Below, in pieces: positions 27,001-33,000 of a stretch of 64,000 nt of DNA. The position numbers were made by a program. The stretch covers positions 1,664,001 to 1,728,000 of the forward strand of contig CAVYXA010000001.1 in the NCBI GenBank assembly GCA_963772365.1, in the 5' to 3' direction. Source of the DNA: an uncultured Verrucomicrobiae bacterium (lineage in GTDB: Bacteria > Verrucomicrobiota > Verrucomicrobiia > Chthoniobacterales > UBA10450). Every line of letters starts with the position of its first letter. Position 1 is the stretch's first letter.

Positions 27001-30000
27001 GAGCTGCAAAAAGCGGCCGAGCAGTTGAAAATTTTTAGCGCGCGGAGCTAGCCGTTTTCTTCGGCTCAATCTTCCGGTAGAGCGTGGCCATGCTAATACC
27101 CAGCATGGTTGCGGCTTTTTCGCGCGAACCGCTGCAATGGTTCAGGGTCGCTTCGATGTAGCGACGCTCCTGTTGCTGGATGTAATCGTCCAAGCTTTGC
27201 CCGACCGGCATTTTCTCCATTTCTTCGTCAGCCTTCTCGCCTTTGGCTTCGCTTACAATGTGCGGCGGCAAATCGCTCGCTAAAATTGTTTCGTCCTCGC
27301 ACAAAGCGCAGGCGCGCTCAATCGCGTTCTCCAGCTCGCGCACATTGCCCGGATAAGAGTAATGACACAAAATGTCGACTGCTTCGGGATCGATCTTCTT
27401 CGGCTCGCCGCCGGTGGCACTGGCCTGCTTTTGAAGAAAATGATTCACCAGCAATGGCACATCTTCGAGCCGGTCGCGCAATGGCGGAATCTCCACCGGG
27501 ATAACGGCCAGCCGATAGTAAAGATCTTCGCGAAATGTGCCGTCCTTCAGCTTCGGTAAAAGCGCTTCATTCGTGGCGCCGACCACGCGAACATTAACGG
27601 GCGAACTCTTGTTGTCGCCCACGCGGCGGACTTCGCGTTCCTGCAAAACTCGAAGCAACTTCGTTTGTAACTGGGGCGCCATGGAATTGACTTCATCCAG
27701 AAAGATCGTACCGAGGTTCGCTTCCTCGAATAATCCGCGCTTATCTGCCACCGCGCCGGTAAACGCACCCTTCTTGTGTCCGAACAATTCCGATTCGAGC
27801 AGATTTTCCGGAAGCGCACTGCAATTGATGGCTACGAAGGGATGATGCTGGCGGTTGGAATTGAAATGCAGGCCGCGCGCGATGAGTTCCTTGCCGGTGC
27901 CGCTCTCCCCGATGATCAACACTGTGCTGTCGGTATCGGCGACTTTGTTCACCAGATTGTAAACCTGCTGCATCTTCTGGCTCGTCCCGACGATGTTCTC
28001 GAACCGGTAACGGTTTTTTAGTTCCTTGCGGAGATAAGTGTTTTCCCGAACAGCGGCTTGAAAATCGAGCGCGCGCTGAATGGTCATTTGTAGCTCGTCG
28101 ATCTTAAACGGCTTGGGCACGTAACCATATGCGCCCATCTTCATCGCCTCTACTGCGGTATCGACTGATGCATAAGCCGTGATGAGAATGACCGAAGTTT
28201 GTCGATGATGTTCCCGCACGTGCCGCAACACGTCGAAGCCGCTCATTGTTTCCATCTTGATGTCGGTGATCACGATTTGCGGTTGGACCGTATCGAGCTG
28301 CTCGACCGCTTTGTTTGCCGAGTTAAATGGAAAAACCTCGTGACCTTTTTCTCGGCAAAGGGTCACGATTACTTCCACCATCGCCGGCTCATCATCGATA
28401 ATTACGACTTTGGCCATAAAATCTCAGCGCGGAGAATATTTCAGAATTGAGAAAAGGAAAGCGAAAATGAGAATTATCTCTAGGCCGCCACCATTCTGAG
28501 ACTTACTGAACCTCACCGCCGAGCATCATCCAATCGACCGCGCCGTCGAAGCCGAGGATCTGCTCGAATGCGTCTCCGCCCGAATCCGGCGTGATTGCAA
28601 TCAAATCCGCCGCATAGCCAGGAGCGATCCGCCCTAGCCGAGTTCCGGCATGCAACGCTCTAGCCGCATTGATCGTGACCATTTCCAAAATCTCTCGCGG
28701 CCAAAGTTTCTCATGGCTCCGTTGCAAAGCGCGCATCTCGGCGAACAGGCTCAGGGTTTCATTACTGGCAAGGCTGTCGGTGCCGAGGCAAATATTCAAA
28801 CCGAGCTTGCCGAACTTGCCGATCCGAAATGGCGAGTGTCCGAAGTATTCATGGCTGCGCGGACAATGCACAATCGTGGGCAGCGTTTTCCGTTGGACGA
28901 GAAATTCCAAATCGTGCAGCGAAACTTCATTGAGATGTACGAGCAACCAGCGGTCGTCGAAATTGCAGAACTCGGATAGATGCTCGATCGGCGTGACATG
29001 ATGCAGGTCTGATGGATCGCGGCCAATCCCGGCGAGAAAATCCGCCAGGAGGCCGCGAGAATGGGCGAACATCTCCATCTCTTCGCGCGATTCGGCCAGG
29101 TGCGTGGTGAGCAGAGCATTTTCGCGGTGCGCAATCTCTTCGCAACGCCGATACAGATTTTCCGAGGCTGTGAACGGCGCATGGGGAGCAAGTCCCCAAT
29201 TTTGCGCGGATTTCAGGGCGTTGCTGGCGAGATCGACAAATTCATTCGAGCGTTGCGGTGAACGAAGATCAATCAGCTCGCCAAACCACCACGTCCGGAT
29301 CGGCGGCCGAATTTGCGCGATCAGCTCGGGAAACGCGGTGAGATTCGCGATAGCAGTCGTGCCGAACTTTTTCGCTTCCGCGAAACCTTCATTGATCGAC
29401 GCGACATAATCCTGCGGGGAAAGTCTCTCTTTTTGGGCAATGATCGCTCGAACCCAATCCGCAAAAGACTTTTGCGGCGGAATCTTGCCGCGCAACCATG
29501 TGTAATCGAGGTGGCAATGAGCGTTGATCAAACCCGGCAGCAGCACTTGTTCGCCAAGATCGACAACTGTGCCTGACTTGCGGGCTCGGACCTCGCCAAA
29601 TTTACCAACATCGACAATCTGCTCGCTCTCGACGGCGACGGCGCCGCTTTCGATCGGCGCGCCTTCCATCGTGACCACGATGCGCGCGCGGAGAATCATT
29701 CTCCCTCTGTAGCGGCGCTCTGTCAGCGTCGCAAACTTTGCGGACAAAACGGCGACGGTCGCAGACCGCCGCTACAATCCAGAGGTGTTTACTCTTCGCC
29801 TTTCACGACTTTCCGGCACTTGGCCACGAGCAGATTGCACGCTTCCTGACAAAGCAACGGTATGCTCGGCTCGTTGCGACCGGTTTGATCATGCACAGGA
29901 TCGAATTTTTCTGGAGGCAAGTGTGTCGATGGAATCGTGCCGGATCTGTCCCGCTTCCACAGAATCGTCCGAAGACATCCGCCATCGGACCTGCAAAACT

Positions 30001-33000
30001 TTGCCACAAGCGGATCGAGTTGTTCCTCGGAAATCTTCGCTGCGACTCGATACATTCCCGATTGTCGGTTCAAAGTCTCTCGCAACGGCGTAGTGTTAAG
30101 TCGATCTGCCTTCCAGGCAGCGAACACCGGCAGCCGACCCGGATAAAAATAGTCCAGGGTTCTGTGGACTTGGTCTCGATCAACAAGTTCCAATTGCCAG
30201 CCATGTCGCAAATTCGGCGCAGTCTTCAATGGGCGATATCGTCCTTCGTCATCAAATTTGGCCATGCGGATCGCCTGCTCGTAATCCGAGAACTTTTCCA
30301 GATCATTCCGCGGTTCGTCATCGCGATGTTTTAGAACGAACCGATTCCCGATCCTGCGCACCAGGATTTGCCCGATGCAAAAACGATCGCCCGGCCGGAA
30401 TTCGCTTGCCATGTCGATCGAATTGTAGGGCGTCTGGGTCATACGCCAACCTCAAAGACGTTTCACAGAAACGTTCTACAACATTCGTGGCGTCTCAGTG
30501 TAAACAATGCGCGATCAAGCCACCGGCGCGCTCGAGAAATTGTCGATCTTCCTGATCGAATGCATTTACCTTATCGCTCTCGGCATCGATCATACCTACG
30601 ATTTTGCGGTGATCGTTCGTCATCGGCACAATGATCTCAGAACGAGTTGTGTGAAAGGTCGGCAAGTACCGCAGGTCATTTTGCACATCACCGACGATAA
30701 TCGGTTTACCCGATTCTAATGCCGCACCACAAATACCCTGAGTAGTCGGGAAACGCGGATAAGTCGGCGGTTCGTTTCCAGTCCCTGAGAGAATGACAAA
30801 ATCATTGTTTACAATCTTATAGACGCCCACCCAGCGGTAATCGCGCGCGGCCCGAACCATCTCCAACAACTGCCGCATCCGCTTTTTCGTGCATCCACCG
30901 GCTAGGGCAAATGCCCCAATTTCCTGCAGCTTTTTACACGTGGTTTCCTTCATTAGCCGGGAAGCAATCTCGCGAAAAAGGAAACAAGCGCCAGCCCGAT
31001 TTCAACTTTTCCCATCAAATTTTGCAGCCATGCGTGGTATCAGCGTGCTCGCTCGATTGACCCTGATTCAGAACAGATTTATCGAGGGCTGCAGCGGGAC
31101 GCAACTCGCTTCCAAGCGTTCTATAACGGTGGGTTTTGACAATTCCTGGACGTCGCTCTTCAGAAACTCCGTGTTTGGTCGACGATGATGTCAGCGACGC
31201 CCGGATCAGTGCCAATCGATGGCGCATAGAACAACGCGCGATTGTCGATCTTGTAAGGGTCCTGGCGGAAAATCTCTCTAACCGCCTGACCGCGGTCCAC
31301 GCCCGCGGCGACAGCGATCCCCAACAAAACCGGAATGTCCTCATAGCTGTGAAGCCCCTCTGCGATAAAGAAAGGGACCACTATCACGTTTGGCGTTTTG
31401 GTTAACTTTCGCCACTCGGAAACTAGCGGGGCTTCTTCCATGTAAACATTCAGAACTGCTGCGAACTTTCCGATCGCGCGGATTTTTTCGGCCTCGCGTT
31501 TTGCCGCGGCCGCGCTGTTTTCGTTCAAATCTGTGCCGTGAGCGACGATCAACAAAGTCGTCTCGGCAGGATCGACATCCGGCGCAATCTCCGAGGCACG
31601 GCGCAGGAGGAGATTGGTCATGGCAGGATGATTTCCCACTGGCTCGCAATAATGCCAGACTTGACCCGTTTCTCGCCTCGTTGCCCGCCCGCTCAACTCA
31701 AGCTCGCGGGGGATCACCGTCTGCGTGAAATAACCTTCGCTGATGAAGTTCGGCACAACGGCGACTTTGCGGATTGATTCGGGATCGAACAGGAATAGCG
31801 CATCGCGCAAGCTCGGTTCCTCTTTCCAGAAGACACACTCAACGCTGGCAAAAATGTCGCGCCGGCGAATCTCAGCCGCATGTGCCAGCGTCGGCACATC
31901 GGAATCGGGATTCACCGTCGATCCGTGGCCGACAATGAGGAGACCAGTCGATTTCGTATCCACCTTGAACGTTTGGCCTTGGAAGGTTAATTTTCAAATC
32001 CTATGCGTTTCCGGACTTACACAAACACCGATCTGAAGGTCAGCGAAGTCGGATTTGGTCTCTGGACCATTTCGACTGGCTGGTGGGGAAATTTCACGGA
32101 AGGCGAGGCGATCGCGCTGATGCACAAGGCGTTCGATTTCGGGATGACGTTGTTTGATGCCGCTGATACTTACGGCAACGGCTTGAGCGAAGAGTTGATC
32201 GCGAAAGCGTTTCCGAATCAGCGCGACGACATCGTGATCGCGACAAAGGTTGGCTATGATTTTGTCCATCACGGCGAAGCGCGCGGGCGTGGGCAGCGTG
32301 AAATTCCGCAGGATTTTTCACCGGAAGCCATTCAGCGGGCAACGGATGCAGCGTTAAAACGGTTGAAGACCGATCGAATCGATCTTCTGCAACTGCACAA
32401 TATTCGAATGGAGCAGGTCGAGGACGACGCTCTTTGGAAAACGCTCAAGAAACTAAAATCCGCCGGGAAAGTGCGCTATTACGGAATTGCTCTCGGCCCG
32501 GCAATCGGATGGTTGTACGAAGGAGTTAATTGCATTCGGGAACGCGACATCACAAGCGTTCAGCACATTTACAACTTGCTCGAGCAACACCCCGGACGCG
32601 CAATGCAGAATGCTGCAACCGAGACTGGTAAGGACACGATGTTTCTAGTCCGCGTGACGCACTCATCGGGAATGCTCGAGGGCAAATACACCGCCGATAC
32701 TGTTTTTCCGCCCACGGACCATCGGAGTCACCGGCCTCGAAGCTGGCTGCTAAATGGAGTTAAGAAGATCGACAAGCTTCGGTTCGTGGAAAATCAGGGT
32801 CGGACGCTTGGCCAGGCAGCCTTGCAATGGTTGCTCGCAGATAAACGCGTCGCCTCGACATTGCCAAACATTTACAACGAAGAACAGCTCGTCGAGTTCG
32901 CGAAGGCGCCGGAAACAGCAGCGTTAACGAGTGAAGAAATGGCGAAGATCGACAATCTTTATTCGGACAACTTTGGTCTCGAACCGGAGCAACCGAAATT

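Follow-up and report, generated by a model that had tools for sequence, protein, structure and literature searches.

The window, a 64,000-nucleotide stretch of Verrucomicrobiae DNA, carries the following four genes on one strand, among them a chelatase gene and a gene for a small protein of the DR2241 family.

31160..31963, minus strand: CbiX, two-lobed class II chelatase of the PRK02395 type, 267 aa (PF01903)
30495..30953, minus strand: GAF protein with one domain, 152 aa, between cbiX and the DR2241 gene
29789..30442, minus strand: DR2241 + Fer4_23 protein, 217 aa (PF18069 + PF18009)
28503..29747, minus strand: amidohydrolase, the downstream neighbour; closest to the aminofutalosine deaminase family, though under its cut-off

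Pfam matches in the window bear out the set of cbiX, GAF and four-cysteine DR2241-Fer4_23 genes described in an earlier note on this DNA. CbiX is matched twice by PF01903 (E 4e-25) and reaches 254.7 bits with NF002671, under the cut-off of 258; the conserved H142 and H205 motifs of its C-lobe hold the catalytic histidines of class II chelatases, His142 and His205. By analogy with the enzymes of PMC4063343 and PMC8305020 it is a probable sirohydrochlorin ferrochelatase, and its metal would be iron, not cobalt, given that CbiC was found in none of five genomes tested. The GAF gene is read as a family-level passenger because it occurs in 80/80 close-relative loci and only 4/30 class-wide. The amidohydrolase, kept in 78/80 close and 13/30 class-wide loci, probably serves menaquinone synthesis, outside the heme route.

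Both domains of the DR2241 protein are well above their gathering thresholds: PF18069, a domain Pfam names 'stabilising', at residues 19-103 (E 2.8e-20, 72.7 bits against 26.4) and PF18009 at residues 113-211 (E 2e-20, 73.4 bits against 27). The four cysteines had been called invariant, and C150, C156, C198 and C202 are indeed kept in 149, 150, 148 and 148 of 150 aligned homologues; H39, D42, R70-P71, W82, Y100-P101 and R126-Q127-x-G129 are conserved as well. Judging from the Pfam name, the protein may carry a [4Fe-4S] cluster, and the paper on PDB 2jh3 reportedly describes one in DR2241. That entry, from Deinococcus radiodurans, is the sole solved relative, as the earlier note held: it is found by sequence, and the predicted structure (pLDDT 89.7) matches its C-terminal domains in Foldseek (E 3e-16) and VIA (Z 20, rmsd 3.0, 191 aligned; TM 0.70). 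Besides 2jh3, VIA gave no fold match above Z 3.6, and an Atlas structure search returned DR2241 clusters only. The likeness covers both domains, the fold, the cysteine pattern and the type of CbiX partner, although DR2241 is fused to CbiX in D. radiodurans and is a separate gene in the host, and Deinococcus has HemE and ChdC without AhbAB. Family searches yielded neither an NAD-binding Rossmann fold or TIGR01470 match nor a radical-SAM PF04055 match, and the cysteine spacing (150, 156, 198, 202) is not the CxxxCxxC of AhbC. The record titles of 2jh3 give no function, and the literature searched proposes neither a function for DR2241 nor the present heme route.

The heme gene content of the host genome (90.3% complete) is as first noted. 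HemA, HemC and a CobA-HemD fusion all exceed NCBIfam cut-offs, the uroporphyrinogen III methyltransferase scoring 290.9 against 185 (TIGR01469); HemB and HemL, identified by short motifs only, are presumably present. Fused AhbAB (C4:168316) exceeds the PF17805 cut-off twice and lies under those of the AhbA and AhbB models (59/140 and 88.7/125). A single frame shift interrupts the putative ChdC gene (C1:1461136; PF06778 E 5e-36; heme synthase as top NCBIfam match), a likely assembly error since MoaA and LipA are broken too and all 53 other ChdC matches in the class lie in open frames. Of the coproporphyrin-dependent pathway, profile searches of the host genome gave no HemE or HemH match and no HemY over cut-off; TIGR01470 and PF14824 were negative for SirC/CysG-N, with weak generic matches only to PF13241; there was no TIGR04546 (AhbC) match at 1e-40, and all 16 radical-SAM matches (15 genes) in this 90.3% complete genome fit families other than AhbC or AhbD best. 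Among the host's genes are multiheme cytochromes and a match to a heme-copper oxidase motif. With the Ahb heme pathway this aerobe shares the methyltransferase, the chelatase and a probable AhbAB, HemE, HemY and HemH not being found; it differs in having no SirC, AhbC or AhbD and would end on the peroxide-dependent ChdC. Haloarchaea, with AhbABCD and ChdC/PitA and with cbiX2 as a predicted ferrochelatase (excerpts of PMC5746218 and PMC8305020), share AhbAB and ChdC without HemE as well as the cbiX-DR2241 pair, but Haloferax has SirC, AhbC and AhbD, all three of which the host misses, so redundancy does not explain the host's gaps.

In a fresh draw of 151 class genomes (DR2241 in 45, SirC in 26), DR2241, AhbAB and ChdC occur without SirC, AhbC and HemE in 27, eight of them single-contig; the profile is fixed in whole Verrucomicrobiae families, among whose members are close relatives that bear the name Candidatus Udaeobacter, and is therefore not a one-assembly curiosity. 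Two of the eight are 0.9-Mb genomes that retain the methyltransferase, CbiX, DR2241, AhbAB and ChdC. A second SirC model had no match in five of five genomes, and HemH and HemY were each found in none of the five tested. These counts support the two-gap siroheme-to-ChdC route of the earlier note, and an AhbC-less siroheme-to-heme route as such is probably real. That there is instead no complete de novo route, heme or coproheme being imported or the genes being divergent or unassembled and DR2241 having an unrelated role, seems improbable: the host assembly is 90.3% complete with a frame-broken chdC, its AhbAB stays under the AhbA/AhbB cut-offs and HemH and HemY were tested in five genomes only, but the eight single-contig genomes, two of 0.9 Mb, share the profile, the second SirC model is negative as well (5/5), and other lineages use this same AhbAB family (53-85% identical; 42% in genome G098) alongside AhbC.

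CbiX is present in every one of the 45 DR2241 genomes, with cbiX inside the fetched flank at 23 of the 45 loci, and CbiX-DR2241 fusions recur. A model of the complex scored 0.85 (best control 0.00), its runs sharing at least 80% of contacts and partner pLDDT being at least 81; this mark is reached by 116/157 solved and 2/215 mismatched pairs, and the pass may reflect memorisation because 2jh3 is a solved complex of like kind. The predicted contact on CbiX is the FWKEEP motif (residues 45-50), of which W46, K47, E49 and P50 are kept in 24/24 CbiX of DR2241 genomes and 5/5 Deinococcus and haloarchaeal partners. Among CbiX from genomes without DR2241, E49 is found in 7/14 and R53 in 4/14, and conservation drops from 0.91 to 0.64 in interface columns against 0.89 to 0.78 in other columns (p 0.0035, without correction for kinship). 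Where DR2241 is present the predicted docking motif is thus retained, and where it is absent the motif is eroded, support that is independent of the complex-model score. Conservation of DR2241 itself is no proof of an active site, because many invariant residues sit in the predicted interface.

Outside the class, the CbiX-DR2241 fusion lies directly upstream of cobA in three of three Deinococcus loci, beside nitrite/sulfite reductase, cysC, cysH and sat, with no sirC annotated and no AhbAB. The D. radiodurans control genome, which has a second such fusion, matched neither SirC nor AhbAB, in agreement with the earlier report of DR2241 without SirC in this species. A Halorussus plasmid carries cbiX-DR2241-cobA-ferredoxin in a row, and these genes also come together at one metagenome locus. 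These cobA cassettes, together with the docking surface on CbiX, make it probable that DR2241 is a redox subunit of CbiX and acts where siroheme is made, whether as oxidase or as chelatase accessory. A more specific assignment is tentative: as that subunit DR2241 would be needed to supply siroheme in bulk under aerobic conditions, its most likely task being the oxidation of precorrin-2. CobA-HemD would convert uroporphyrinogen III to precorrin-2, CbiX with DR2241 would take precorrin-2 to siroheme, fused AhbAB would produce didecarboxysiroheme and ChdC would turn coproheme into heme b, the proposal assigning no catalyst to the step from didecarboxysiroheme to coproheme. DR2241 would sit as a [4Fe-4S] subunit on the N-lobe of the ferrochelatase beside the tetrapyrrole cleft, take two electrons, singly, from precorrin-2, free or complexed with iron, and hand them on to ferredoxin or oxygen. 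It would thereby do the work of SirC without being homologous to it; cells with only trace needs for siroheme could do without DR2241, and those that use siroheme as the bulk heme precursor would retain it. SirC/CysG-N (TIGR01470) catalyses the reaction proposed for DR2241, which takes the same slot in cobA-chelatase cassettes; DR2241 differs in having no Rossmann fold, NAD site, or sequence or fold likeness, would rely on a [4Fe-4S] cluster as one-electron acceptor, and is itself not needed for trace siroheme. Common soil bacteria would then run a route without two textbook enzymes, one gap probably being filled by a CbiX-docking Fe-S protein.

The oxidase remains the most likely single function, but the reason first given for it, mutual exclusion with SirC, is weak. 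Overlap is again zero in the new draw (0/45); SirC, however, is confined to four families, and 80/125 SirC-negative genomes have no DR2241 either. SirC genomes do not help to tell a role of the SirC kind from one of the AhbC kind, because AhbC accompanies SirC in 21/23 of those with AhbAB and in 8/8 further SirC genomes; the two SirC genomes by which the note had discriminated are fragile, G058 belonging to a genus where 10/11 genomes have AhbC. The CbiX of SirC lineages is of another type, with a single lobe, which suggests that one module (two-lobed CbiX-DR2241) replaces another (single-lobe CbiX with SirC). Against an oxidase, SirC or DR2241 covers just 62 of 83 AhbAB genomes, as compared with 80 for AhbC or DR2241, and 51 genomes from 21 families, 30 with CbiX, have the methyltransferase and a sulfite/nitrite reductase but neither SirC nor DR2241. 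Genomes of the latter kind are explained by E. coli without cysG, where methyltransferase and chelatase alone give enough siroheme (excerpts of PMC4063343). SirC and DR2241 do coexist in the Haloferax volcanii control genome, as noted earlier. Five HemE genomes keep DR2241 without AhbAB or ChdC, all five changed in core motifs (p 0.09, outgroup-defined columns), and these copies resemble relics more than functional oxidases. AhbAB and AhbC without SirC, DR2241 and ChdC are the set in genus g16 (18 genomes, several of them on a single contig) and in G098, a 99% complete genome with a CbiX of the host's two-lobed type; DR2241 was lost there together with ChdC, not swapped for SirC.

Several of these patterns would also suit a somewhat unlikely role for DR2241 as a CbiX accessory without ring oxidation, one that maintains iron in the ferrous state or keeps the chelatase poised when oxygen is present, or that stabilises the enzyme and retains product for AhbAB, precorrin-2 being oxidised non-enzymatically or by another, unnamed protein. 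Such a role draws on the same docking, fusion and adjacency, accounts for the coexistence in Haloferax, for the loss in g16, where the two-lobed CbiX is also missing, and for the 30 genomes whose CbiX works without DR2241, and agrees with the 'stabilising' of the Pfam name. It leaves 39 AhbAB+ChdC genomes without any oxidase for bulk siroheme, however, and does not explain why cbiX-DR2241-cobA cassettes lack only the dehydrogenase or why AhbAB genomes with single-lobe CbiX all show SirC except G136, from whose assembly the methyltransferase is also absent.

The earlier note gave too little weight to the AhbC step. As an oxygen-tolerant AhbC replacement, DR2241 would pair with ChdC as AhbC does with AhbD and, with CbiX as its tetrapyrrole-binding partner, form a [4Fe-4S] enzyme that needs no SAM and takes the two acetates on rings A and B off didecarboxysiroheme. 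We regard this as unlikely, a shade more so than the accessory role, yet it fits the class gene content best (80/83 against 62/83). DR2241 is present in 29 of 32 AhbAB+ChdC genomes without AhbC, and among 116 SirC-negative siroheme makers it tracks AhbAB+ChdC (39/40 with, 6/76 without). Only G058, G096 and G112 (95-96% complete assemblies) have AhbAB and lack both AhbC and DR2241. The loss of DR2241 with ChdC where AhbC/D remain (g16, G098) also fits, as does the haloarchaeal case, where SirC is already present, AhbC-like genes lie in denitrification or low-oxygen clusters in most of six plasmid loci, ChdC functions in the presence of oxygen and an as yet unrecognised way to coproheme has been suspected for Haloferax (excerpts of PMC5746218). 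The conversion formally removes two acetates without net redox change; by our reasoning, the cluster would oxidise the ring by one electron, H39/D42 as base would deprotonate C3/C8, and a carboxymethyl radical would leave and regain the electron. Intact Deinococcus copies lie, on the other hand, in a siroheme cassette without AhbAB; DR2241 adjoins neither ahbAB, ahbC nor chdC in 80 metagenome, 80 close and 60 ahbAB/chdC loci, the metagenome negatives for ChdC and reductase each resting on one query sequence; and the predicted docking is on an enzyme two steps upstream. Where AhbC is present DR2241 is not more eroded (3.5 changes against 4.1, p 0.23). A DR2241-free bypass exists, because the Sulfolobus acidocaldarius control has AhbAB and ChdC with neither AhbC nor DR2241 (excerpts of PMC3004389, in which three AhbC-less archaea are doubted to make heme at all).

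A single small soluble protein makes two open tetrapyrrole steps accessible to testing: precorrin-2 oxidation in organisms without SirC, and coproheme formation in aerobes with AhbAB and ChdC and no AhbC (excerpts of PMC5746218 and PMC3004389). The former include Paracoccus, whose precorrin-2 dehydrogenase is noted as missing in the excerpts of PMC4063343; by description its CbiX is likewise two-lobed with C-lobe histidines, and those excerpts mention no DR2241 partner. With either outcome, a fold whose structure dates from 2007 gains a function, and the missing AhbC step stays a real target even if DR2241 serves the earlier step. If the AhbC-substitute reading were true, there would be a fourth, fully aerobic siroheme-to-heme route in abundant soil Verrucomicrobiae and haloarchaea. 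Heme is the evident use of siroheme in 11 of the 45 DR2241 genomes, because these have no sulfite/nitrite reductase, still keep the methyltransferase and CbiX, and gave no CbiC match in the five tested.

Other ideas were set aside. An iron-uroporphyrin route bypassing methylation is not favoured, as the methyltransferase is intact and over cut-off in 142/151 genomes, including those without other siroheme use; its fusion to HemD makes this route unlikely rather than strictly excluded. Haloarchaeal AhbC (TIGR04347, 'pseudo-SAM') is no dead enzyme, CxxxCxxC being intact in 6/6 fetched of 12 matches. That the AhbAB of AhbC-less genomes forms a special bifunctional clade finds no support: there is one family, shared with AhbC users, with one distinguishing column (35 sequences). 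A relaxation of selection on DR2241 in genomes with AhbC was seen with circularly defined columns and was gone with outgroup-defined ones. A profile for divergent DR2241 in the SirC order was negative in 5/5 (a search without positive control). No neighbour of ahbAB/chdC that might replace AhbC recurred across families in 60 short loci, nor in 20 longer ones, where the ORF filter missed known genes. A TrpD-like gene beside ahbAB in the host scores as a true TrpD, unlike the haloarchaeal one.

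The gene under study lies on the minus strand of the window beside three others:

31160-31963, minus strand: cbiX, 267 aa
30495-30953, minus strand: GAF gene
29789-30442, minus strand: DR2241/Fer4_23 gene, 217 aa, both Pfam domains well over cut-off
28503-29747, minus strand: amidohydrolase gene

The 217-aa protein is a DR2241 family member and neither SirC nor AhbC. Sequence, Foldseek and exhaustive fold searches all return the Deinococcus radiodurans structure 2jh3 as its sole solved relative (Z 20 in the exhaustive fold search, next-best match Z 3.6). A DR2241 profile search yielded 937 representatives at 50% clustering; in an alignment of the best 149 of these 937 with the query, the four cysteines and R70, W82, P101, R126, Q127 and G129 are invariant or nearly so. 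The nearest named genomes are Chthoniobacterales and Candidatus Udaeobacter. The GAF protein, found in 80 of 80 close-relative loci and, where seen, encoded between cbiX and DR2241, is similar to free methionine-sulfoxide reductase, seemingly without one of the catalytic cysteines of that enzyme; it could bind a tetrapyrrole.

The CbiX chelatase very probably has DR2241 as a true subunit, because the predicted complex scores well and the predicted docking surface on CbiX is kept with DR2241 and eroded without it. The model scored 0.85 (best control 0.00); its contacts agreed to at least 80% between runs, and the partner pLDDT was 81 or more. Of solved pairs 116 of 157 attain this mark, against 2 of 215 mismatched ones; as 2jh3 exists, the model may have memorised the complex. 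The predicted DR2241-facing surface of CbiX comprises FWKEEP and R53. W46, K47, E49 and P50 are kept in all 24 CbiX examined from the AhbAB+ChdC group of the 45 DR2241 genomes, and the surface is also kept in 5/5 Deinococcus and haloarchaeal partners; it is eroded in the 14 CbiX examined from DR2241-less genomes. The CxxxC helix of DR2241 (199-204) forms part of the predicted interface, which would bring the predicted cluster near the tetrapyrrole cleft.

In the source genome, a single cluster comprises hemA-hemC-cobA/hemD, with sirC absent from it; HemB and HemL were recognised by short motifs only, and there are family matches for a fused AhbAB and for ChdC. Family searches of this 90.3% complete genome gave no match for SirC, AhbC, HemE, HemH or HemY, and its radical-SAM genes fit other families, HemW and PqqE among them. 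There is one frame break in chdC (contig C1, 1461136-1461952); moaA and lipA are also broken (further positions C3:156713 and C1:743703) and the 53 other chdC matches in the class all lie in open frames, which suggests that the chdC break is an indel error of the assembly.

One set of 151 class genomes, each at least 90% complete, was searched for nine families, and no rows were dropped. SirC was counted over its curated score (26 genomes), AhbAB at E 0.001 (83 genomes) and AhbC-like proteins at 327 bits or more (54 genomes, none attaining the 650 cut-off; NirJ1/AhbC is the best fit in the five checked).

Heme gene profiles in the class survey
HemE only: 51 genomes
DR2241+AhbAB+ChdC: 27 genomes (8 single-contig, two of 0.9 Mb)
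AhbAB+AhbC: 19 genomes
SirC+AhbAB+AhbC: 11 genomes; 10 more with ChdC added
DR2241+AhbAB+AhbC+ChdC: 9 genomes
DR2241+HemE: 5 genomes
Every remaining profile: at most 5 genomes each

Eleven DR2241 genomes have no sulfite/nitrite reductase, and CbiC was found in none of the five of them tested. All 11 retain the methyltransferase and CbiX. The simplest reading of these gene profiles is a siroheme-to-ChdC route without AhbC, and such an AhbC-less route to heme looks real and widespread. In the available parts of the literature, cbiX2 is a predicted ferrochelatase (PMC8305020, including its supplement) and DRA0012 and DR2241 share a table row (PMC1274311). Neither the route in bacteria nor a function of DR2241 is named in the accessible portions of these two papers or of PMC7242693, PMC13564367, PMC4063343, PMC5746218, PMC3004389, PMC3595025 and PMC5810253, and no proposal of either was found in the literature searched, insofar as its text was available; subscription papers outside this scope may bear on novelty.

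In family f19 (loci L034-L049 against L060, L063, L340 and L341), many genomes carry two AhbAB genes: a canonical copy close to genes for multiheme cytochromes, and the divergent native copy, which accompanies ChdC in 11 of 13. A ferredoxin adjoins chdC in genomes G009, G030 and G039 (L079, L086, L091), and an FNR-type reductase adjoins ahbAB in G112 (L216:5396-6103), the best genome with SirC and neither AhbC nor DR2241.

DR2241 had been put forward in an earlier note as a candidate Fe-S precorrin-2 oxidase, from its place beside cbiX and its mutual exclusion with SirC. The observation holds, as SirC occurs in 0 of 45 DR2241 genomes, but the oxidase interpretation is borne out only in part: SirC is limited to four families (mainly one order, 27/30 genomes, plus family f11), and 51 genomes from 21 families combine methyltransferase and reductase while lacking both SirC and DR2241, which takes force from the pattern. 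Among SirC-negative siroheme makers, DR2241 tracks AhbAB+ChdC (39 of 40 genomes with the pair versus 6 of 76 without). AhbC accompanies SirC+AhbAB in 21 of 23 genomes, so these are unable to separate the SirC gap from the AhbC gap, and is present in 8/8 further SirC genomes. Core motifs are altered in each of the five HemE genomes that retain DR2241 (three lineages). Families f22 and f24 (e.g. G085, G097) have methyltransferase and sulfite/nitrite reductase; CbiX is missing in 17 of 18, with no CbiK (2 tested), SirC or DR2241.

A cluster bound by four cysteines is well suited to electron transfer, and precorrin-2 is readily oxidised. The best single reading, held tentatively and at less than even confidence, is that DR2241 would oxidise precorrin-2 while CbiX holds it. 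According to PMC4063343, E. coli without cysG regains siroheme when given only a methyltransferase and a chelatase, and aerobic cysG complementation requires no dehydrogenase; a trace siroheme demand would thus need no oxidase. Bulk demand, for heme, would need one, a distinction that would reconcile the weak SirC exclusion pattern with the siroheme-stage evidence. Oxidation by DR2241 fails to explain genus g16 and genome G098, two lineages whose kin are not independent, which need bulk siroheme, have lost DR2241 along with ChdC, retain AhbC and have gained no SirC; nor does it explain the redundancy in Haloferax. All of these are accounted for if DR2241 is an accessory to CbiX in iron handling, a rather unlikely role that leaves precorrin-2 oxidation uncatalysed. 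With DR2241 as either oxidase or accessory, ChdC itself is a candidate for the AhbC step.

In G059, which encodes AhbC and AhbD as well, the DR2241 copy (L030) no longer carries C150 or the RPLK motif; the sister lineage, genus g16, has lost the gene. The single-contig g16 genomes G042 and G143 (L208-L210) have methyltransferase, AhbAB and AhbC; SirC (two models in G042), DR2241 and CbiK were not found in them, nor was CbiX at 1e-6.

Of the 83 AhbAB genomes, 80 satisfy 'AhbC or DR2241' against 62 for 'SirC or DR2241', and class gene content is best fitted if DR2241 replaces AhbC. This would also suit haloarchaea, where AhbC-like genes are intact yet lie largely in low-oxygen clusters. Such a replacement, which we regard as more doubtful still, nevertheless fails on Deinococcus and on gene context, and S. 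acidocaldarius bypasses the AhbC step without DR2241. Gene context speaks for DR2241 acting at the siroheme stage. In D. radiodurans, D. wulumuqiensis and D. ficus, cobA comes after a CbiX-DR2241 fusion whose motifs are intact; the three loci adjoin nitrite/sulfite reductase and cys genes, sirC is absent there, and neither SirC nor AhbAB was detected in D. radiodurans with the control sets. A Halorussus plasmid carries a cbiX-DR2241-cobA tandem and Natronorubrum a cbiX-DR2241 pair. Both genes occur in 57 of 80 metagenome loci, many of the 80 apparently haloarchaeal (one of the 57 also with cobA), and none of the 80 has ahbAB, ahbC/D, chdC or sirC.

Two haloarchaeal-type loci (L106, L242) have a ferredoxin and a TrpD-like gene alongside cbiX-DR2241-cobA; the TrpD-like gene (L106:11574-13036) best matches PRK07394, at a score below the cut-off. 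In D. ficus, a TIGR04053 (AhbD-like) radical-SAM gene (L105:5712-6881) lies two genes from the CbiX-DR2241 cassette. TIGR04347 'pseudo-SAM' proteins (L328-L333) keep CxxxCxxC in 6/6 and share 42-46% identity with verrucomicrobial AhbC; each of their genes comes after a small gene of the Htur_1727 family that bears the annotation of a candidate peptide.
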